Sequence record: OK335775.1
From: Escherichia phage PSD2002
Direction: 5' to 3' (one strand)
Length of the DNA stretch: 64,000 nt
Below the pieces are notes generated by a model. The model ran no database searches. It saw only the letters and a list, made by a program, of their open reading frames with translations, and was not told the DNA's origin. A program made the translations under genes and the position numbers. Below, piece after piece: positions 1 through 9,864 of the stretch (position 1 is the first letter of the stretch; each line of letters starts with the position of its first letter).

Positions 1-378
1 AAAGACTTCGATTTTGTAGCCGTGACTGCGCTAGGCGACTCAATTGATGCACTGCTGAATAGACAATTCAATTTGAATGCTTTGTTCCCTGGCGCATTCA
101 AGGAGATTCTGATGTGTGGTCATTCAGAATCAAAAGAAGACCTCTTCATAAGAGCTAAAAATACGTACGGTAAACGTATTAAGTTTTATGTTGATGATTT
201 GGCTCACCACTGTGATGCTGCATCTAATGTTCTCATGGATATCCAAGTTTATTGGTTAGCTCGTGGTGAACGTGACTTTAAACCTAATTTAGCCGTAAAG
301 GTTAATTCATGGGACGATATCGCAGCAATCGAATCCCTTCGTAATAATGCCGCAGTTGAATGGATTGCTCGAGGTTAA
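1..378 (+). CDS. hypothetical protein, 5'-truncated at window edge
   Basis: Frame 1 open from nt 1 to stop at 376-378; track ORF 22..378 starts at a non-ATG codon, so the true start is probably upstream of the window. Confidence 0.4.
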   Translation, partial: KDFDFVAVTALGDSIDALLNRQFNLNALFPGAFKEILMCGHSESKEDLFIRAKNTYGKRIKFYVDDLAHHCDAASNVLMDIQVYWLARGERDFKPNLAVKVNSWDDIAAIESLRNNAAVEWIARG

Positions 379-379
379 T

Positions 380-658
380 ATGTTTGTAGTTCATACAATT
401 TCAGACTATGGTCCTACCACTACAATGGATTATGGTCATGTAAACCAGTTTATTCGTCATGTGAATCATGATTACTCATTTGATGTAAATCCGGCTAAAG
501 ACCATCCTGTTTGGCGCGAATGCGTCGAACAGGGATTCATTTATGTCCACTTTATGTCCAAGTTCAAATCTGATGGGCGAATGAGATTTGTGTTCTCTTA
601 TCATAAGCGATTAGACTTGCTTTTGGCTGATGTGGCTTATAATAGAATCCATGACTAA
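380..658 (+). CDS. hypothetical protein
   Basis: Track ORF 347..658 trimmed to the ATG at 380 (MFVVHT...) preceded by GAGG; no recognisable motif. Confidence 0.45.
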   Translation: MFVVHTISDYGPTTTMDYGHVNQFIRHVNHDYSFDVNPAKDHPVWRECVEQGFIYVHFMSKFKSDGRMRFVFSYHKRLDLLLADVAYNRIHD

Positions 659-668
659 TGAGGTGATT

Positions 669-2195
669 ATGATTTTAGATATTTTAAACGAAATTGCTGC
701 TATTGATTCTACTAAAGCTAAAGAAGCCATTATTGCTCGTGAAAAGGACAATGAGCTTCTGAAACGTGTTTATCGTATGGCTTATACCCGTCGTCTGAAC
801 TACGGTATTAAAAAGTGGCCAGAACCTGGATTTACATCTCAATCCTTTGGTATGATTACTCTTGAAGACCTTCTTGATTTCGCTGAATTCACATTAGCCA
901 CACGTAAGATTACGGGTAATGCGGCTATTGAAGAACTGGCTCAAATCATTGCTGATGCTAAGGCCCCGGATGCCGAGGTATTACGTCGTGTAATGATGCG
1001 CGACCTTGAATGTGGTGCATCGATTTCTATTGCTAACAAGGTTTGGAAAGGTTTAATCCCTGAACAACCGCAGATGTTGGCGAGTTCTTATGATGAAGCT
1101 TTGATTAAGAAAAATATTAAATGGCCAGCGTTTGCTCAATTAAAAGCTGATGGTGCTCGTTGTTTTGCCGAAGTTCGTAACGATGGTGTGACATTCCTTA
1201 CTCGTGGTGGTAATGAATACCAAGGGCTTCATCTTTTAGCTGCTGAATTAATGGCGATGACCGAAGAAGCTCGTCAACGTCATCCTAATGGCGTTATGAT
1301 TGATGGCGAATTAGTTTACCATACTCCTAAAGTTGAACCTAAAGCATCTAATGATTTGTTTAGTATGTTTGACGAGGAACTTCCTGAATTAAGTAAAGCC
1401 AAAGAATTCCAAACTGTCGCCGATCGTTCTACGTCAAATGGATTGGCTAATAAGGCTCTTCAAGGAACTATCACCCCATCTGAAGCCGCTGGTATGGTAT
1501 TACAGGCATGGGATTATGTCCCACTGGATGTCGTGTATTCTGAAGGCAAAATTAAAGGTGATAAGTATGATGTACGCTTTACAGCCTTAGAACTTATGGT
1601 GGCTCATAATGTCGTATTGCATGGCACAACGCGTGTTGAAGCTATCGAAAACCAGTGGGTTAATAATCTTGAAGAAGCTAAAGTCGTTTATAAGAAATAT
1701 GTCGACCAAGGTCTGGAAGGTATTATCCTTAAGAACATGGACTCCTACTGGGAAAACCGCCGTTCTAAGAATCTTATCAAGTTCAAAGAAGTAATCGATA
1801 TTGCTTTAGAAGTGGTGGGTTATTATGAACACTCGAAGGACCCTAACAAACTAGGCGGTGTTGAATTAGTATCACATTGTCGTCGAATTACAAGTGACTG
1901 TGGTTCAGGCTTTAAAGATACCACCCATAAGAAAGATAAATCAGGTAAAAAAGTATTGATTCCATTGGAAGACCGTCCTGATTTAGACCGTGAACTTCTT
2001 ATGAAACAAGCTCGTGAAGGTAAGTTGATTGGACGTATTGCTGACTGTGAATGTAATGGTTGGGTTCATTCTAAAGGACGTACTGATACTGTAGGTATTT
2101 TCCTTCCAATTATTAAAGGTTGGCGTTTCGATAAAACAGAAGCTGATACATTTGAAGATGTATTCGGGTCGTGGGACCAAACAGGACTTAATTAA
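669..2195 (+). CDS. 30: ATP-dependent DNA ligase (T4 gene 30 homolog)
   Basis: Track ORF 630..2195 trimmed to MILDILNEIA...; KADG adenylation motif (AFAQLKADGARCFAEV); N-terminus and overall sequence closely resemble T4 DNA ligase as recalled. Confidence 0.9.
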   Translation: MILDILNEIAAIDSTKAKEAIIAREKDNELLKRVYRMAYTRRLNYGIKKWPEPGFTSQSFGMITLEDLLDFAEFTLATRKITGNAAIEELAQIIADAKAPDAEVLRRVMMRDLECGASISIANKVWKGLIPEQPQMLASSYDEALIKKNIKWPAFAQLKADGARCFAEVRNDGVTFLTRGGNEYQGLHLLAAELMAMTEEARQRHPNGVMIDGELVYHTPKVEPKASNDLFSMFDEELPELSKAKEFQTVADRSTSNGLANKALQGTITPSEAAGMVLQAWDYVPLDVVYSEGKIKGDKYDVRFTALELMVAHNVVLHGTTRVEAIENQWVNNLEEAKVVYKKYVDQGLEGIILKNMDSYWENRRSKNLIKFKEVIDIALEVVGYYEHSKDPNKLGGVELVSHCRRITSDCGSGFKDTTHKKDKSGKKVLIPLEDRPDLDRELLMKQAREGKLIGRIADCECNGWVHSKGRTDTVGIFLPIIKGWRFDKTEADTFEDVFGSWDQTGLN

Positions 2196-2365
2196 TGAAA
2201 GTTTATTTAGAAACAATTGTTATATCAAATACAAATATTACGGCAGTCTCTCAAATCATCCTTGATTTTGAGGACGAAATAGCTTTTGCCGATTTTAAAG
2301 ATACCTTCGATGGCTATGAAAAAGGCCCTACATTCGAAGTATATCGTACACTGTTACCACTTTAA
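2195..2365 (+). CDS. small hypothetical ORF (56 aa), start overlaps ligase stop (TAATG)
   Basis: ATG overlapping ligase TAA; open frame MKVYLETIVISN... ends just inside a terminator hairpin; below the 60-aa track cutoff. Confidence 0.3.
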   Translation: MKVYLETIVISNTNITAVSQIILDFEDEIAFADFKDTFDGYEKGPTFEVYRTLLPL

Positions 2366-2384
2366 GGCCTTCGGGCCTTTTCTG
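2364..2384 (+). terminator. stem-loop AAGGCC-TTCG-GGCCTT followed by a short T-run
   Basis: Perfect 6-bp stem with tetraloop, then TTTTCT, between ligase operon and alt1. Confidence 0.45.
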
Positions 2385-2415
2385 GCATAAATAAGGTTAT
2401 TAAAGAGGAATTATT

Positions 2416-4311
2416 ATGTCCGAACAATTGAATGAGGTATTTGATGGTGATATAAATTTATCTGCTGTCAATTTAAACCCTAAACTTAAAGTCCCACAGA
2501 TTTGGAATATAAAGGCTGAAGGTAACGAGAACCTTGTTGCCCGCATGGTTTCATATACTTCCGAAGGCGATGTAATTCGTCAGGTTAAGCCTGGTGACAA
2601 GTATGTTCATGTCGTTTTAATGAGCCTATCGGCTAAAGGTTCTCCTGCCGAACTCAAAGGTGGATTAGGTACCAATCCTATTTCCGCTATTCGTTCTATA
2701 TTTGATATCGTCTATGAACAGGTCAAGGCCCTTCGTATGGACGCTGTTATGTTCCGTTTTCCTACCAAGAAAATGAAAGGGCAGGAAAAAGCTATACAGA
2801 GGGTATTGGCTAAATTAATAGCCTCTAGAGCAGGCGGACAGTTTAAAGTTCTTGATGCCTTGTATCAATTCACCGGTAAGCATTCGTATGTTTTTATCTA
2901 TCGTAAAAATAAAAATATAGAATCTATAAATGGTATTCCTAATATTAATTTAGAATTGTATACTAAAGTCGAATCTGAAGTCGGTGACGTGTATGTTTCA
3001 AAGAAAACAGGCGAAGATGTTACCAAACTAGAAGCTATAGCTAAGTCCATAGACGAAATAGAAAAATCACGTTCTGATAAAACTGTTATAACCAAAACAA
3101 AGGTTTCTAAACGTGCTGCTATCAATGCTTTATATCCTACAGCAGAGCCTACAGGATTGAGTAAATTTTCGGCAGAGCACAAAAAAGCTTATGCAGATTA
3201 TTCTGCTACTAGTTCCGTTCATTCTTCTGAAGATTCTAAAGAAAGCCAAATAGCTTTAGCCAGTAATAAAATATTAAAAGACACCTCTAAAGAAATGGCA
3301 GAATATTTGGATTATATTTTTAACGGTGTTAATCCATCATTTGAAGTAGACGAGCGCAAACTTAAACTAATTGCTGATATAAAGTTTGCTTTAGAGGCAT
3401 CAGATTCTTTAGATAAATCTAATAGTGTCATAGAGGCTTTAAAATCAGGTAAATCTCATGTAGACATTCTTAGACTAGTCGCTGCGGCCCTTTTAGATGA
3501 TTCAGTTAAAGGTACTTGGGCTAGAGAATCTAAAATCAAGGAAGTAATAAAATCCTTAGTAGCAGTTTATACAAAATCTATCCAACCGTTGTTTAAGATA
3601 TCTGATAATCCTAATTTATCCAAACCTCAAGAAGAGGCAGTCAAAAAGTATACTCGTGGCGGCTACAACCATATAAACAACTTTTTGCTAGGTAAAACAG
3701 ATACCACCGATGAAATGATAAAAATGATTGGTGAGTTGGATTCTACATTTGAAAATGGTACAAAACTTCCTAAAGGAACCATAGTGTATCGTTCTCAGAT
3801 AATGCCTACCGAAATGGCTTTGAATTCTATAAAACATAAGGTGATGTATCTTCCTATTTTTGCATCAACTTCATTGGCTCCTAATATTTTCGGTGAAATG
3901 GGTCATGCTCAATCCAACTTAGACCCTGAAGCTCTTTCTAGCGATATAGATAGTAATCTTGAAGACACCATTAAAAGTGCGACCGGAAGTGCTAGAGATA
4001 CCATTAAGCTAGGGTTAATTATTAAAGGTGCTGATAAAATTAAGGTTATTGTGCCCGGTGACTTGGCTAATTGGTCTACAGAAACCGAAGTAATTCTTCC
4101 TCGTGGGGTTATGCTTAAGATTAATAAAGTATACGGTGCTTCCAAGGGACCTATGGGTTCAATTGGTAAATATGTTTTAGTGGAATGTGAAGTTGTAGCT
4201 ACCGAGCAAATCACAGAGGAAGATTCATATAGCACCGGATTCTCGTTTGGAAATTATGATAGAATTATGTATGAAGATTCTATGGAAAAATTAGCAAATT
4301 TATTTAAATAG
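2416..4311 (+). CDS. alt: Alt-like ADP-ribosyltransferase, paralog 1 (631 aa)
   Basis: RBS AAAGAGGAA; N-terminal block shared with the next two ORFs; C-terminal ART signatures VYRSQ, FASTSL, ETEVILPRG; position next to gene 30 as in T4. Confidence 0.8.
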   Translation: MSEQLNEVFDGDINLSAVNLNPKLKVPQIWNIKAEGNENLVARMVSYTSEGDVIRQVKPGDKYVHVVLMSLSAKGSPAELKGGLGTNPISAIRSIFDIVYEQVKALRMDAVMFRFPTKKMKGQEKAIQRVLAKLIASRAGGQFKVLDALYQFTGKHSYVFIYRKNKNIESINGIPNINLELYTKVESEVGDVYVSKKTGEDVTKLEAIAKSIDEIEKSRSDKTVITKTKVSKRAAINALYPTAEPTGLSKFSAEHKKAYADYSATSSVHSSEDSKESQIALASNKILKDTSKEMAEYLDYIFNGVNPSFEVDERKLKLIADIKFALEASDSLDKSNSVIEALKSGKSHVDILRLVAAALLDDSVKGTWARESKIKEVIKSLVAVYTKSIQPLFKISDNPNLSKPQEEAVKKYTRGGYNHINNFLLGKTDTTDEMIKMIGELDSTFENGTKLPKGTIVYRSQIMPTEMALNSIKHKVMYLPIFASTSLAPNIFGEMGHAQSNLDPEALSSDIDSNLEDTIKSATGSARDTIKLGLIIKGADKIKVIVPGDLANWSTETEVILPRGVMLKINKVYGASKGPMGSIGKYVLVECEVVATEQITEEDSYSTGFSFGNYDRIMYEDSMEKLANLFK

Positions 4312-4319
4312 GATAGATT

Positions 4320-6401
4320 ATGACCCAATTAAATGAAGTGTTCGAGTCCGAAGGTACACTGCCTGTTGTGAACTTGAACCCAAAACTTAAAGTACCTCAG
4401 ATTTGGAAGATTGGAGACGCGGAGTCTCAGTTAGTAGCACGTATGGTATCCTACGCTTCTGAAGGTGATGCTATTAAACAAGTTAAAATGGGTGATAAAT
4501 ATGCCCACGTTATCCTTATGAGCCTTTCAGCTAAAGGTTCGCCTGCCGAACTTAAAGGCGGCTTAGGCCCTACTCCTGTAGATGCGATTAATACTATTTT
4601 TGATGTGGTTTATGACCAAGTTAAAAAGCTTCGTATGGATGCCGTGATGTTCCGTTTCCCTACTAAGAAAATGAAAGGTCAAGGCCCTATCGTTCAACGG
4701 ATTATCCAACGTTTGGTAGCACAGAAAACCGGTGGACGTTTTAAAGTGGTTCCGGCTATGTACCAATTTACCGGTAAACATACTTACATCCTGGTAGTTC
4801 GTAAACAAGCTGATATAGAAGATATCAAAGGTATGCCTGGAATTAATGCTGAATTGTATACTAAGGTAGATTCTGATGTCGGTGAAGTTTATATTTCTAA
4901 AAAAGAAGGCGTACAGGTTACTAAAGAAACTGCTATCGCCGGTAGTATTGCTAAGGTTGAAGAACGTCGCACTGATAAAATGGTTATAACCAAGACTAAG
5001 ATTTCTCGACGTGCTATTGCAGCAAGTCAATCGTTAGAATCTTATCGTAATGAAAGTGGGCTGTTTAAGAAATATGAAGCTACTGCAGTAGATTTTAATA
5101 AACCGGCAACAGTTCCATTAATCCCTGAGGCCCAGGAAATGGTCACTAATAACAATTCTCCTGCGGCTAAAAATAAGGTTGCTAATATAGTAGCTGAAGG
5201 CACTGCTGAAGAATTGCATTACGACTATAAATTGTTCCCACTTCACGGTATTGGTGAAATCCAAGAGAAAATTAAAGAGAAAATTCTTACAGCTATCAAA
5301 AATGAACCTTTGACATCTGTTAAAGCCCTGGAAAAATATGCCTCTACCATTAATACCATTTTCGAAGAATATAAAGGCGAGTGGCTGGCTATCCATAACA
5401 GAACTCGTAAAGGCCAACCTGACGACGTCTGGAATGAATTAACCGAGTCCAAGTGGAAAGCAGCCAAGACTAAGTTCATTAAAAAACGTGTGTATAGTTT
5501 TGCTGGCGTAGGTGGTGGTATTATGGTCGATATTACTATTGCTCGTGAGGGCTCTAAATATACCCCATCACAAAAGCGCGGCATCAGAGAATATTGTGGT
5601 TCAGGATATACAGACATAAATAATCTTCTTTTAGGACGTTATAATCCCCAGAACTATGAGGTTATGAGCGAAAAAGATATCGAATCTGCAGTTAATAATT
5701 TGGATTCCGCTTTTGAAAATGGCGACCGTATACCAGAAGGCATCACAGTTTATCGTGCACAGAGTATGACTGCTCCTATATACGAAGCACTAGTTAAAAA
5801 TAAAGTGTTCTATTTCAGAAATTTTGTATCTACTTCTTTAACTCCTATAATTTTCGGACGTTTTGGTGTTACACACGCTGGTATTGGTCTTTTAGAACCG
5901 GAAGTTCGCAACGAATTGACAGTTGATAAAAATGAAGAAGGAATAACTATTAATCCTAATGAAATAAGAGCGTATAAGGAAAATCCCGATTACGTTAAGG
6001 TTCAAATAGGATGGGCCATTGATGGGGCTCATAAAGTTAATGTCGTATATCCAGGAAATCTCGGAATAGCAACTGAAGCCGAAGTTATTCTACCGCGTGG
6101 ATTAATGGTCAAAGTTAATAAAATAACAGATGCTTCTAATAATGATGGAACAACATCTAGTAATACAAAACTCATCCAAGCTGAAGTTATGACAACAGAT
6201 GAGCTTCAAGAATCTGTTGTATATGATGGTGATGTACTAATGGAAACCGGCGAGTTGGTCGTATATCAAGATGACTTCGATACTTCCGAAAGCCCCTTAT
6301 CTTTTGATTCATTTGTTAAATCTACACGGTTTGATGTACTGCCTCTTTTGGCTTCATGCATAGACCTCTATGACATCCCAGAAAAATTCATCCAAGGGTA
6401 A
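4320..6401 (+). CDS. alt: Alt-like ADP-ribosyltransferase, paralog 2 (693 aa)
   Basis: Same conserved N-terminal block; C-terminal VYRAQ, FVSTSL, EAEVILPRG; central region unrelated to paralogs 1 and 3. Confidence 0.8.
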   Translation: MTQLNEVFESEGTLPVVNLNPKLKVPQIWKIGDAESQLVARMVSYASEGDAIKQVKMGDKYAHVILMSLSAKGSPAELKGGLGPTPVDAINTIFDVVYDQVKKLRMDAVMFRFPTKKMKGQGPIVQRIIQRLVAQKTGGRFKVVPAMYQFTGKHTYILVVRKQADIEDIKGMPGINAELYTKVDSDVGEVYISKKEGVQVTKETAIAGSIAKVEERRTDKMVITKTKISRRAIAASQSLESYRNESGLFKKYEATAVDFNKPATVPLIPEAQEMVTNNNSPAAKNKVANIVAEGTAEELHYDYKLFPLHGIGEIQEKIKEKILTAIKNEPLTSVKALEKYASTINTIFEEYKGEWLAIHNRTRKGQPDDVWNELTESKWKAAKTKFIKKRVYSFAGVGGGIMVDITIAREGSKYTPSQKRGIREYCGSGYTDINNLLLGRYNPQNYEVMSEKDIESAVNNLDSAFENGDRIPEGITVYRAQSMTAPIYEALVKNKVFYFRNFVSTSLTPIIFGRFGVTHAGIGLLEPEVRNELTVDKNEEGITINPNEIRAYKENPDYVKVQIGWAIDGAHKVNVVYPGNLGIATEAEVILPRGLMVKVNKITDASNNDGTTSSNTKLIQAEVMTTDELQESVVYDGDVLMETGELVVYQDDFDTSESPLSFDSFVKSTRFDVLPLLASCIDLYDIPEKFIQG

Positions 6402-6404
6402 ATA

Positions 6405-8528
6405 ATGGAAAATTTAAATGAGGTTTTTGATAGTGATTCCGCTAAAAACTATCCAGTAACAAATCTTAAACCGGGTTCCGGTATTCCACAGATTTTCTCT
6501 ATCCAAGCACCAGGTAATGATAATCTGGTTGCTCGTATGGTATCTTATGCGTCTCAAGGAGACGCTATTAAAATGGTTAAGCCGGGCGACAAATATGTTC
6601 ATGTTATCTTAATGAGTTTATCTGCTAAAGGCGCTCCGGCAGAACTCAAGGGTGGTTTGGGTACCGATCCACTCGGTACACTGAACACCATTTTCGATAC
6701 CATATATGAACAAATAAACAAACTTAAAATGGACGCGGTTTTGTTCCGTTTCCCTACTAAGAAAATGAAAGGTAAAGGTCCTACCGTTCAGCGCGTATTA
6801 GCTCGCTTGGCTATGGCTCGTACCGGTGGTAAGTTTAAAGTTGTTGACGACATGTTCCAATTCAGCGGAAAACATACCTACGTTCTTTTAGTACGTCGTG
6901 GTGCTAGTATTGAAGATATCAAGGGTATGCCTGAAATTAATGCCGATCTTTATACTAAAGTTGAGTCTAAAGTTGGCGAAGTGTATGTTTCTAAGAAAAC
7001 CGGCCAGGCTGTAAGTAAGGTCGAAGCCGTAGCGGCATCTATTGCACAAGTTGAAGAGAAACGTACTGATAAGGCTGTCATTACTCGTACTAAGATTTCG
7101 CGTCGTATGGCAGCGGCGGCGCAGTATTCTACTGCTGAGCCTGAAACTTTGTCCTCTAAAGAATTGCAGGTTTATAACGAGTTTGAAGCTTCTGTACCGG
7201 TTCACACGGCTGAAGGCCCTGAGAACGAAGGTATTGAACAGATTAGTCAGAACTTTAAAAAAGGTGCCATTACTAAAATGCGTCAGGCTTCTCAGTTTAA
7301 ATCTAAGAGCGAGGACCTTGCCAACTTTAGATACACTATTGCTCTCACACACGCTTTAATGACTGATAGTAAATTTAAACTAAATTATGCTAATAGAGAT
7401 AAACAAGGGTTTGAAATTTACTCTAATAATATGGCATTTTTTAATACAGAAGTCGATAGACTTTTAAGTGGCCTTTCGCAAATCAATACAACCAATAGTC
7501 TGGATATTATTAAGAAAATTGTTAATAACCTGAGTACCCGTTTTAAGGGTTCCCCTTCAGAGAAAGCATCTAGAATTGCTTTCGCTATGGAAGCCGTTTA
7601 TAAACTGGTTAACGATTCTATTAGTGATGCATATGCTTATTCAGGCGAGCTCATTAAACCTAAGGACCTAACCAAAGATGAAAGCAATGCTATTATTGAA
7701 TATTGCGCGGCTGAATATGCTCCTATGAACTTATTCCTTTTAGGTAAACCTGAATCCGAAAACAATACAACGGCTATTAAATTGATTAAGGATTTAGACT
7801 CAGCATTTACTAAGGGTATTAAACTTCCTAAGGGTACTATTTTGTATCGTGGTCAGGATTTGCCATACAAAATTCTGCGCCATAATATCGATAACAAAAC
7901 ATTTTACTTTAAGAACTTTGTGTCAGCCTCATTAAAGCCTAACATCTTTGGTGAATTCGGTAAAAATTATATGGCCCTCGACAACCAAGCCGTTTTTGTT
8001 GGTGGTGAAGGTTCTTTGTCCTCCGCTGATGAGTTGTTTAAATTGGCTAGTGGTAGTTCATCTGATGTGGGTGAAGTCGATGACGAAGAGGTAGAATGGG
8101 AAGAAGACGAGTTTGGTAATCCAATTGCACCTGAAGGTCCTGCAGATAGAATTGCTGAAATTGGTATGGTTATTCGAGGTGCTGAAGCAGTTAAAGTTAT
8201 CGCTCCTGGTGACCTTACAGAATATGCCGAAGAAGCAGAAATTATCCTTCCGCGTGGATTATTGTTGAAGGTTGATAAAGTAGCGGCTTTTGCCATGAAT
8301 GATAGAGTATCTCACAAATACCTTATGGAAGCTACCGTAACGCCTCCTTCAGAGCTCAGCGAATCTGTTTACGATGGTGACCATTTGATGGAAACTGGTG
8401 AAGTTCGCCTGATGGATGGATTTAGTCAATTCTTGGTTAATGAATCCGTTTCTGAAAGCAACGAAGCTATGGAAATCCTTGCCGCGTCTTTGGATATCTC
8501 TTCTTTATCAAATAAATTCAAAATGTAG
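6405..8528 (+). CDS. alt: Alt-like ADP-ribosyltransferase, paralog 3 (707 aa)
   Basis: Same N-terminal block; C-terminal LYRGQ, FVSASL, EAEIILPRG; acidic insert (VDDEEVEWEEDEF). Confidence 0.8.
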   Translation: MENLNEVFDSDSAKNYPVTNLKPGSGIPQIFSIQAPGNDNLVARMVSYASQGDAIKMVKPGDKYVHVILMSLSAKGAPAELKGGLGTDPLGTLNTIFDTIYEQINKLKMDAVLFRFPTKKMKGKGPTVQRVLARLAMARTGGKFKVVDDMFQFSGKHTYVLLVRRGASIEDIKGMPEINADLYTKVESKVGEVYVSKKTGQAVSKVEAVAASIAQVEEKRTDKAVITRTKISRRMAAAAQYSTAEPETLSSKELQVYNEFEASVPVHTAEGPENEGIEQISQNFKKGAITKMRQASQFKSKSEDLANFRYTIALTHALMTDSKFKLNYANRDKQGFEIYSNNMAFFNTEVDRLLSGLSQINTTNSLDIIKKIVNNLSTRFKGSPSEKASRIAFAMEAVYKLVNDSISDAYAYSGELIKPKDLTKDESNAIIEYCAAEYAPMNLFLLGKPESENNTTAIKLIKDLDSAFTKGIKLPKGTILYRGQDLPYKILRHNIDNKTFYFKNFVSASLKPNIFGEFGKNYMALDNQAVFVGGEGSLSSADELFKLASGSSSDVGEVDDEEVEWEEDEFGNPIAPEGPADRIAEIGMVIRGAEAVKVIAPGDLTEYAEEAEIILPRGLLLKVDKVAAFAMNDRVSHKYLMEATVTPPSELSESVYDGDHLMETGEVRLMDGFSQFLVNESVSESNEAMEILAASLDISSLSNKFKM

Positions 8529-8558
8529 TTTACAACACCACAAGGATGTGGTACTATT
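8528..8558 (+). promoter_or_regulatory. sigma70-type early promoter (GTTTACA -35, 17-bp spacer, TACTAT -10) with an inverted repeat in the spacer
   Basis: GTTTACA at 8528-8534, TACTAT about 8552-8557; inverted repeat ACCACA-agga-TGTGGT at 8537-8552. Confidence 0.45.
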
Positions 8559-8585
8559 ACCTTACACAAACATGAGGAGAACATT

Positions 8586-8876
8586 ATGAAATCTGCATTC
8601 CGTTTTAATGGTCAAGAACTGGTAGTTGAAAACGTTATCCCTGCTTCCGAAGAGTTTGACAGTGCCGTAGGTAATGAATTACGTCGAGTTTTCGGTGAAG
8701 ACAAACAGTTTGATATCCGACCTGTTGAGAATTTTTCTTATCCAGAACAAACCGAAAACATTTTTAACGGTGTAGTGACAGGACAACTCGAATCTGAAGC
8801 TCCTATTTCTATCACGGTCTTTGTTAAAAAGCAGCCATTAATGACTGCAGCAGGTTTCATTTCGTTCCGTAAATAA
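8586..8876 (+). CDS. hypothetical protein (96 aa), alt-downstream position
   Basis: Track ORF with ATG and RBS GAGGAG; own early promoter upstream; no recognisable motif. Confidence 0.5.
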   Translation: MKSAFRFNGQELVVENVIPASEEFDSAVGNELRRVFGEDKQFDIRPVENFSYPEQTENIFNGVVTGQLESEAPISITVFVKKQPLMTAAGFISFRK

Positions 8877-8883
8877 ACCCCTA

Positions 8884-8909
8884 AAGGAGAGCATATGCTC
8901 TCCTTTTTT
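8884..8909. terminator. palindromic hairpin GGAGAGCATATGCTCTCC + T6 between convergent genes
   Basis: 18-nt perfect palindrome followed by TTTTTT; lies between the + ORF ending 8876 and gp54 ending 8911. Confidence 0.6.
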
Positions 8910-8910
8910 G

Positions 8911-9864
8911 TTATAACAGCCTCGATATTCCATTATTAATAGCACGCCCACCAAATGTATTAACCAATCCTGTTAATCCACTAGAAGCTCCTGAAAGTCT
9001 ACTTAATTTGGCCACTGAAGAACTCAGCGAATTGCTCTCACTTAGCCCAGCGACGCCTTTAATAATCTTATCTTCCAACCACTCATAAGCAGCTTGTTTA
9101 CCAACTGCACCCGTCTGTACACTTCTATAAGCAAATGTAACATCAAATGAAGCAATTTGGTTATCACCGTCGTAGGATAATTCCGGTGACGAAACACCAA
9201 CAGGAACACAACCATTAAGCATTACTACTGTATGGGGTAATCCATTACGAGAATGAAGGTTGACTTGAATGTCGGCTTCAACATCCTCGGGTAATGCTCT
9301 TAATTGTGTAATAGGGTCTTGAACACTATTAACCCAATCATTAAAAGCACGGTAGTTAGCAGCTTCAGAATCCATACGGAAGCTTAATACTAATGGAGAA
9401 TATTCTCTTCCGGTAATTTTGATGTTAGGTGAGTTGTGGTTCAAATCCATTTCATAGTTCAAAGTATTATCCGGGATTTTAACGGCGTGGACTAAAAGAC
9501 CTGCCGTAGGATAGGCCATATTGAAAAAATCCATCAGATATGTACCTACTTCAAACTCCCCTAGTAAGCTCTGCACAACCCTGGATGACATAGCTCCAAT
9601 CAAATATTTACTTATGCCTGACTTACGAATCAACTTCTGAGTGCCCGCTGTCACTAATGTCGTAACACCTTGGGTCAACTCTCCTTGTGTAATACCAAAC
9701 AAATCGCTATTCAATGGGATATTGTTAAATAAAGCTCCACCAAACTGGTCGAGGAGCGCTTGGGATTTAGAAGAAGGAACCGTAGCAAATACTACACTAA
9801 ACAGGTTATTCCTCTGTAGGTCAATATTAATTGCCTGGTTCTGAAATTCTTGTAAAGTATACAT
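8911..9864 (-). CDS. 54: baseplate tail-tube initiator gp54
   Basis: 317 aa (T4 gp54 about 320 aa); N-terminus MYTLQEFQNQAIN resembles T4 gp54; synteny 54-48-29. Confidence 0.8.
   Translation of the reverse strand: MYTLQEFQNQAINIDLQRNNLFSVVFATVPSSKSQALLDQFGGALFNNIPLNSDLFGITQGELTQGVTTLVTAGTQKLIRKSGISKYLIGAMSSRVVQSLLGEFEVGTYLMDFFNMAYPTAGLLVHAVKIPDNTLNYEMDLNHNSPNIKITGREYSPLVLSFRMDSEAANYRAFNDWVNSVQDPITQLRALPEDVEADIQVNLHSRNGLPHTVVMLNGCVPVGVSSPELSYDGDNQIASFDVTFAYRSVQTGAVGKQAAYEWLEDKIIKGVAGLSESNSLSSSVAKLSRLSGASSGLTGLVNTFGGRAINNGISRLL

Follow-up and report, generated by a model that had tools for sequence, protein, structure and literature searches.

Among the T4-like phages, the best described relative of the genes considered here is alt of phage T4. 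Its product is an enzyme that T4 packages in the head and injects with the DNA, and it ADP-ribosylates the alpha subunit of RNA polymerase and other host proteins. gpAlt belongs to the prohead core, where it is non-essential; each head contains about 40 copies, from which the prohead protease gp21 removes an N-terminal peptide (PMC9958956). Two cuts in T4 Alt were mapped by mass spectrometry (MS), after ITE-6 and, unexpectedly, after LTE-619, giving a mature protein of 68.2 kDa (PMC5694885), and MS also revealed an Alt homologue among the virion proteins of the Morganella phage MP1 (PMC5384007). Alt paralogues have been described in 44RR, RB49 and T4 (PMC1524935); Alt duplication was reported for JS98, Bp7 and Ac42, and ZZ1 carries three Alt-like genes, one of them split at about amino acid (aa) 217/409 (PMC4177764). 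Tandem Alt/Alt2 pairs are common in T-even phages. To our knowledge, T4 Alt is the only one of the Alt paralogues to have been characterised.

The window analysed here comprises 64,000 nucleotides (nt) of Escherichia phage PSD2002 (sequence record OK335775.1). Between positions 2,416 and 8,528 it carries three consecutive alt-like genes, which we call copies 1, 2 and 3 in the order of their positions. The data suggest, with a probability of about 0.7, that this Dhakavirus alt locus encodes three Alt paralogues that would be co-transcribed late, packaged into the head, trimmed, injected and directed at different host targets.

Three Alt-family genes in tandem

A preliminary description of this DNA, made from the sequence alone, had listed three consecutive open reading frames (ORFs) on the same strand, and their coordinates and protein lengths proved exact (Table 1). 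The intergenic gaps were 8 nt (copies 1 and 2) and 3 nt (copies 2 and 3). At the DNA level the array formed a repeat of three in-register direct copies with 70-73% identity and a spacing of 1.9-2.1 kb, and the overall identity in a three-way protein alignment was 41-44%. No further Alt-like sequence was found elsewhere in the window. The gene order, ligase (gene 30), alt.1, three alt genes, alt.-3, gene 54 and gene 48, is that of T4, and the array occupies the position of the Alt family between gene 30 ligase/alt.1 and alt.-3/gene 54.

Table 1. Features of the alt locus of phage PSD2002 (positions in the window; residues in aa; processing predicted)
Feature	Position	Strand	Description	Domain layout	Catalytic residues	Predicted gp21 sites, mature chain and mass
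alt.1 homologue	2195..2365	+	56 aa; read from the sequence; position of T4 alt.1 and WG01 ORF202			
Hairpin AAGGCC-UUCG-GGCCUU	2364..2379	+	Probable terminator/insulator for early transcription, upstream of the alt array			
Late-promoter-like box CATAAATA	2386..2393	+	22 nt upstream of the ATG of copy 1; differs at one base from the T4 late consensus TATAAATA			
Copy 1	2416..4311	+	631 aa; Alt-like ADP-ribosyltransferase (ART), rare "third" cassette type	N domain 1-233; helical middle 234-411; ART 412-601; propeptides 1-7 and 602-631 (predicted)	R459; S484-T-S486; E556-T-E558	LNE-7, ITE-601; 8-601; 65.3 kDa
Copy 2	4320..6401	+	693 aa; counterpart of Alt proper (T6-type allele)	N domain 1-231; middle 232-424; ART 425-631; propeptides 1-6 and 632-693 (predicted)	R479; S504-T-S506; E586-A-E588	LNE-6, LQE-631; 7-631; 69.4 kDa
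Copy 3	6405..8528	+	707 aa; counterpart of Tequatrovirus Alt2	N domain 1-234; middle 235-432; ART 433-653; propeptides 1-6 and 654-707 (predicted)	R482; S507-A-S509; E610-A-E612	LNE-6, LSE-653; 7-653; 71.1 kDa
Early-type promoter-like site	8529..8557	+	GTTTAC, 17 nt spacer, TACTAT; precedes the alt.-3 homologue			
alt.-3 homologue	8586..8876	+	96 aa; 59% identical to T4 Alt.-3; adjoins the array downstream			
Terminator-like hairpin	8883..8906	+	10 bp stem and T run; between alt.-3 and convergent gene 54			

All three proteins matched PF03496 (ADP-ribosyltransferase exoenzyme) above the Pfam gathering score, with E-values of 6.5e-14, 4e-36 and 3e-17, and matched phrog_802 ("Alt-like RNA polymerase ADP-ribosyltransferase") from residue 1 over most or all of their length (E 1e-205 to 1e-263). 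Homologues carry the precomputed domain PF26846 (Alt N domain) and are named NAD(+)--arginine ADP-ribosyltransferase in the source databases. A search of NCBIfam gave no match for any of five proteins, and Pfam searches with the isolated N domain and the three middle regions returned nothing above noise. An alignment of the ART domains with those of T4 Alt and Tequatrovirus Alt2 showed no variation at the Arg of (V/L)YR-x-Q, the two Ser of S-x-S or the two Glu of E-x-E. Every N- and C-terminal motif quoted in the preliminary description was present in the alignment, and its placing of an R-S-E ART at each C-terminus agrees with these profile matches and invariant residues.

E-x-E, and not Q-x-E, is the arginine-specific signature of the R-S-E clade of ARTs. 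Activity is lost in a T4 Alt mutant published as "E577A" (PMC11404850); the mutated residue is taken to be the second Glu of E-x-E, which is E576 in the 682 aa T4 sequence used here (a one-residue offset), and the equivalent Glu was kept in all three copies. A profile built from the ART alignment matched BECa, iota toxin Ia, CDTa, VIP2, Certhrax and Vis in the PDB, where no structure of Alt itself was found, and the YR and E-x-E of the Alt copies aligned with those of the BECa and iota-toxin structures. The AlphaFold2 model of copy 1 (predicted local distance difference test score 71, predicted template modelling score 0.63) consisted of an alpha/beta N domain (aa 13-235), an all-helical middle (245-395), an ART domain (400-595) and a disordered tail (597-631). 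Structure prediction, proposed earlier as a check on the ART assignment, gave a positive answer, as the Foldseek matches of the copy 1 ART domain were Vis, Ia, CDTa, C3 and VIP2 (E about 1e-6). The Alt copies share the ART fold and the catalytic triad with the C3, VIP2, iota Ia, CDTa and Vis toxins; unlike these toxins, they have no binary-toxin adaptor domain, carry an Alt-specific N domain and, by analogy with T4, would be delivered by packaging in the phage head.

The assignment to the Alt family is supported by sequence profile, invariant catalytic residues and predicted fold, and we predict with very high confidence that copies 1 to 3 are three functional Alt-family arginine ARTs. Purifying selection on each of the three genes is strong: against their nearest relatives, the ratio of nonsynonymous to synonymous substitution rates (dN/dS) is 0.06-0.08.

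A triple array as such, which the preliminary description had implied to be novel, is already known. At 100% coverage, the region showed 98.2% identity to Escherichia phage vB_EcoM-E33, and its identity to PSD9, LQ5, ABTNLS3 and WG01 was 96-98%; WG01 and the two-copy relatives that were fetched are classed as Dhakavirus, Straboviridae. The identical arrangement of copies 1, 2 and 3 is found in E33, WG01, PSD9 and ABTNLS3 (96-98% nt identity), whose annotation already names these genes RNA polymerase ADP-ribosylase or Alt-like, and Alt duplications are described in the literature (PMC1524935, PMC4177764). What the present analysis adds to the existing annotation is confined to the picture of a constant N domain with swappable cassettes and to a conserved C-terminal processing site.

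Mosaic structure of the alt locus

Each copy consisted of a conserved N block, a centre that could not be aligned, an ART domain and a tail. A conserved N block had been recognised before, but it extends over about 232 aa at 62-67% pairwise identity and not over about 190 aa. The centre, likewise described as unrelated between copies, showed 12-23% identity, but measured about 170-200 aa and not 250-300 aa. Profile-profile comparison of the three middle types with hhalign gave nothing significant (probability at most 6%), and the sole faint signal, a linker motif within the first ~55 residues, was common to the types of copies 1 and 3. The ART domains were 36-41% identical between copies, and the C-terminal tails 18-39%.

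An Alt-specific N domain of about 230 aa, which characterises the family, was found in all three copies. Its profile, searched against 1.84 billion representative proteins, matched only 72 clusters; the domain was always N-terminal, and the proteins were nearly always 600-712 aa long with an ART. A word-indexed homologue search with the N domain alone returned three proteins only, and a PDB sequence search with its profile gave zero matches at E-values up to 10. Membership of the N domain in the GNAT family, characterised by a beta-alpha core and a Q/R-x-x-G-x-G/A loop that binds acetyl-CoA, was considered and not adopted. Two proteins stood apart in architecture. One, of 1142 aa (P0086), has a long extra C-terminal region. 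The other, a metagenomic protein of 541 aa (P0089), carries the Alt N domain at aa 1-162, followed by about 380 aa in which no ART and no other Pfam or PHROG family was detected; it is a possible case of non-ART cargo on an Alt delivery domain and the only such candidate.

The segments of the Alt proteins had different relationships. N domains grouped by lineage, with 62-67% identity among Dhakavirus paralogues, 67-68% between Tequatrovirus Alt and Alt2, and 42-46% across genera. In the segment identity matrices, the middle, ART domain and tail grouped by type, incongruently with the N domain. These comparisons of sequence segments show that the alt locus is mosaic and that cassettes of middle plus ART domain were exchanged between phages and between genera; the variable unit is really the middle together with the ART domain, and not the middle alone. 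Breakpoints lay at domain boundaries, namely at a K-(T/V)-K-(I/V/F)-S-(R/K)-R motif near aa 232, at the start of the ART domain and at the C-terminal cleavage site.

One exchange involved copy 2 and the T6-type Alt of Tequatrovirus Bas41. The two proteins were 30-57% identical in the N domain and 60-70% in the middle, and the ART segment reached 95% aa identity. Over aa ~395-615 of copy 2 (window 5500-6170), compared with Bas41 Alt (comparison locus L004, 4181-5443), identity was 88-100% in aa and 82-94% in nt, and third codon positions were 57-88% identical. Flanking genes set the baseline between the genera at 61% (ligase), 63-64% (gp54) and 59% (alt.-3); because the identity of the copy 2 ART segment is far above it, a recent inter-genus transfer of this segment is indicated. 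Within Tequatrovirus, T4 and Bas41 Alt were 97-100% identical in nt over aa 1-235, 41-58% over aa 255-400, 63-72% over most of the ART domain and 95-98% from aa 616; here a cassette has been replaced between conserved flanks.

Further exchanges were seen among the Dhakavirus relatives. ORF195 of phage MX01 (681 aa; comparison locus L007, 3762-5807) had an N domain of the copy 3 type (92-94% identity), and over the first 60 codons of the gene the nt identity to copy 3 was 96-97%, which indicates that recent gene-conversion tracts do exist outside the window. The cassette of ORF195 shared 77% identity with that of Gaprivervirus Alt (VR7, VR25 and SP18 altB) and 31-36% with those of the three window copies. 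Copy 1 of the window and that of WG01 had cassettes with 100% nt identity and a patch of the N domain, at aa ~31-165, with only 80-88%. The GC content of copy 1 was 34-37%, compared with 39.7% for the window and 37.5-41% for copies 2 and 3; the lower value is consistent with a foreign origin of copy 1. As a cause of the lineage grouping of the window N domains, recent gene conversion was unsupported, since third-codon identity between the paralogues was about 30-60%, and synonymous sites between these domains were near saturation. The grouping may reflect older gene conversion, independent duplications or co-evolution with partners in the head core.

By sequence identity, copy 2 is the counterpart of Alt (full-length identity of 66% to T6/Bas41 Alt and 47% to T4 Alt) and copy 3 the counterpart of Alt2. 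Copy 3 and Bas41 Alt2 shared a full-length identity of 48.7% and ended in the same KFKM, with 48% in the middle, 58% in the ART domain and 62% in the tail. Like Tequatrovirus Alt2 (Bas41 Alt2, Bp7 alt' and ime09 "alt.-2"), it is the last alt gene before alt.-3. Copy 3 differs from Alt2 in a longer acidic insert (EVDDEEVEWEEDEFGNP...) at aa ~553-575 (window 8060-8130), in the loop between S-x-S and E-x-E; the 60 residues from aa 541 to 600 include 17 D/E and 4 K/R, and the insert is missing from copies 1 and 2. Copy 1 is, on the same type of comparison, a rare extra type. Its cassette type had seven phage records above 95% identity and six at 60-80%, the band into which the SP18 altA type falls, and all others of the 50,697 records were at or below about 41%.

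Alt is carried by roughly 1,200 phage records, and the number of genes also varied. Only copies 2 and 3 were present in the Dhakaviruses IME08, JS10 and IME281, and 12 records, including MX01, QL01, AnYang and fDHCT2, had a 681 aa gene between copy 2 and copy 3. These arrays differ from that of the window in having, in the middle position, a Gaprivervirus-like cassette behind a copy-3-type N domain. T4 had been cited as having a single alt at this position. One intact alt is indeed present in T4, but the adjacent alt.-1 and alt.-2 (comparison locus L005, 3556-3941), which the annotation describes as an old duplication of the beginning of alt, matched Bas41 Alt2 at residues 1-56 (95% identity) and 62-116 (98%); Alt2 is the product of an intact gene that follows alt in Tequatrovirus Bas41 (L004, 5598-7655). 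Because these remnants match intact Alt2, T4 once had a second alt gene and has lost most of it, and by this evidence its single alt is a derived state. The PSD2002 array resembles the alt locus of T4/T6 in domain order, genome position, upstream hairpin, catalytic residues (R/S-x-S/E-x-E) and an [L/I]-x-E motif at both gp21 sites; it differs in having three genes where T4/T6 have one, and in an N domain only 42-46% identical to that of Tequatrovirus although the copy 2 ART domain is 95% identical to the T6 type.

A constant N-terminal module before variable cassettes that are swapped by recombination at domain boundaries is also found in polymorphic toxin systems. Unlike those systems, the alt locus showed no immunity genes and no orphan cassette stubs, no small ORFs on the same strand were found between or after the cassettes, and every detected cargo but one was an ART of a single family. 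The resemblance is one of logic only and does not make the locus a member of such systems.

Predicted processing sites and expression signals

Both cleavage sites mapped in T4 Alt aligned to [L/I]-x-E in all three copies. The N-terminal L-N-E followed by V, earlier proposed as a prohead protease site, aligned exactly with ITE-6 of T4, but the second, C-terminal site had been missed. Calculated in the same way as the masses in Table 1, T4 Alt residues 7-619 gave 68.2 kDa, in agreement with the published value. The tail of copy 1 after E601 was predicted to be disordered. Given the conserved C-terminal site, trimming in the head may affect every Alt paralogue at both ends.

Upstream of copy 1, a 40-nt segment that includes the UUCG hairpin (2356-2395) folded with a minimum free energy of -12.3 kcal/mol (z -2.7). 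T4 alt is preceded by nearly the same hairpin and then by the perfect late promoter TATAAATA, and a terminator upstream of alt is conserved in five of six T4-like genomes (PMC1524935). The box CATAAATA lies at the same place as the late box of T4, after the same hairpin, one mismatch from TATAAATA, and is followed by a GAGG ribosome-binding site and the start of copy 1. A perfect TATAAATA late promoter for the array was sought and found nowhere in positions 1-9000. No hairpin and late-box element comparable to that of copy 1 precedes copy 2 or copy 3, and from this arrangement we infer that the three genes form one late operon.

The flanking genes correspond to those of T4. The C-terminal residues of the alt.1 homologue resemble those of T4 Alt.1, and at 56 aa the gene fell below the 60 aa threshold of the ORF listing. 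The gene begins within the stop codon of the ligase gene (TAATG), and its own stop overlaps the first bases of the conserved UUCG hairpin. The -35 box of the site before alt.-3 matches GTTTAC, the -35 consensus of T4 early promoters (PMC1524935).

Proposed substrates and alternative explanations

In the sequence of events that we propose, the three genes would be co-transcribed late and the Alt copies built into the prohead core, where gp21 would cut after LNE-7, LNE-6 and LNE-6 at the N-termini and after ITE-601, LQE-631 and LSE-653 at the C-termini, leaving mature proteins of about 65, 69 and 71 kDa. The trimmed proteins would be injected with the DNA and would mono-ADP-ribosylate arginines on different sets of host proteins. 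By analogy with T4, late co-expression, packaging, double trimming by gp21 and injection of all three copies are likely. Copy 2 would most probably act like T6/T4 Alt, on RNA polymerase alpha and other proteins, and copies 1 and 3 would have other preferences. That the substrate sets differ, which is plausible but somewhat less probable, is suggested by the unrelated middles, the 36-41% identity of the ART domains, the differing loop inserts and the residue four positions before E-x-E (turn 1 of the ADP-ribosylating turn-turn (ARTT) loop), which is W, I and Y in copies 1 to 3 and S in T4. A role of the variable middle in specificity, as suggested in the preliminary description, is plausible.

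Several points weigh against this proposal. Packaging, cleavage, activity and targets of copies 1 to 3 are all carried over from T4, and the suggestion of different targets comes from sequence divergence alone. [L/I]-x-E is a short motif that occurs 6-14 times per protein, and it carries weight only through its conserved position. The box CATAAATA is mismatched at position 1, and 15 boxes with one mismatch occur in the AT-rich DNA of 2150-8600. Copy 3 has S-A-S in place of S-T-S.

All three proteins have the same N domain, the same catalytic motifs and the same two processing motifs, and the genes are co-linear in one apparent operon, as would be expected if the array merely raised the dose of a single Alt activity per virion on the same targets. 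This is improbable, given ART domains so divergent, middles that cannot be aligned, different ARTT-loop residues and loop inserts, and the fact that each type has a counterpart of its own elsewhere among the genera (Alt for copy 2, Alt2 for copy 3); long-term retention at a dN/dS of about 0.07 also argues against simple redundancy. We give slightly less credence still to the idea that one or more copies are not injected enzymes at all, and serve mainly as structural components of the core or act late in the producing cell like ModA/ModB. Besides being an enzyme, Alt is described as belonging to the prohead core (PMC11404850, PMC9958956), and the packaging of copies 1 and 3 is itself proposed by analogy with T4; yet the catalytic residues are intact in all three copies, the N domain and both protease motifs are conserved, and assembly of T4 does not require gpAlt.

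An attractive special case of diversified targets would be that the extra cassettes, especially copy 1, disable host immune or toxin proteins on entry and turn over with the hosts. T4 Alt ADP-ribosylates and weakens the MazF toxin, as stated in a passage of PMC5408214 that cites Alawneh 2016. T4 mutants with a C-terminally extended Alt.-3, whose gene adjoins the array, escape the CmdTAC defence system, so that the neighbouring gene is a locus of escape mutations (PMC11618068). Cassettes are swapped between genera and are patchily distributed, with the 7 and 6 records of the copy 1 type and the 12 of the MX01 type. However, patchiness and mosaicism are common in non-essential T4-like genes generally, and no defence protein is known as a target of any paralogue in the array; we regard counter-defence as unlikely, although less so than a pure dosage effect. 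A broader version, in which the T-even alt locus is a recombination-driven polymorphic array of injected effector cassettes and rare extras such as copy 1 are counter-defence effectors, is tentative and rather doubtful. Under this broader version, a lineage-specific N domain needed for incorporation into the head may double as a homology anchor for gain, loss and swapping of cassettes; a GNAT-like N domain that binds a cofactor or acts as a second enzyme would be a further, speculative layer.

Diversified targets of three injected Alt paralogues remain the reading that we prefer. As a finding the array is ordinary, and its value lies in the system that it offers for the study of injected ARTs. 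The natural arrays of one, two and three copies, with at least five cassette types on a common N domain, form a ready-made panel for the determinants of substrate choice in injected phage ARTs and for the question of whether extra copies counter host defences.

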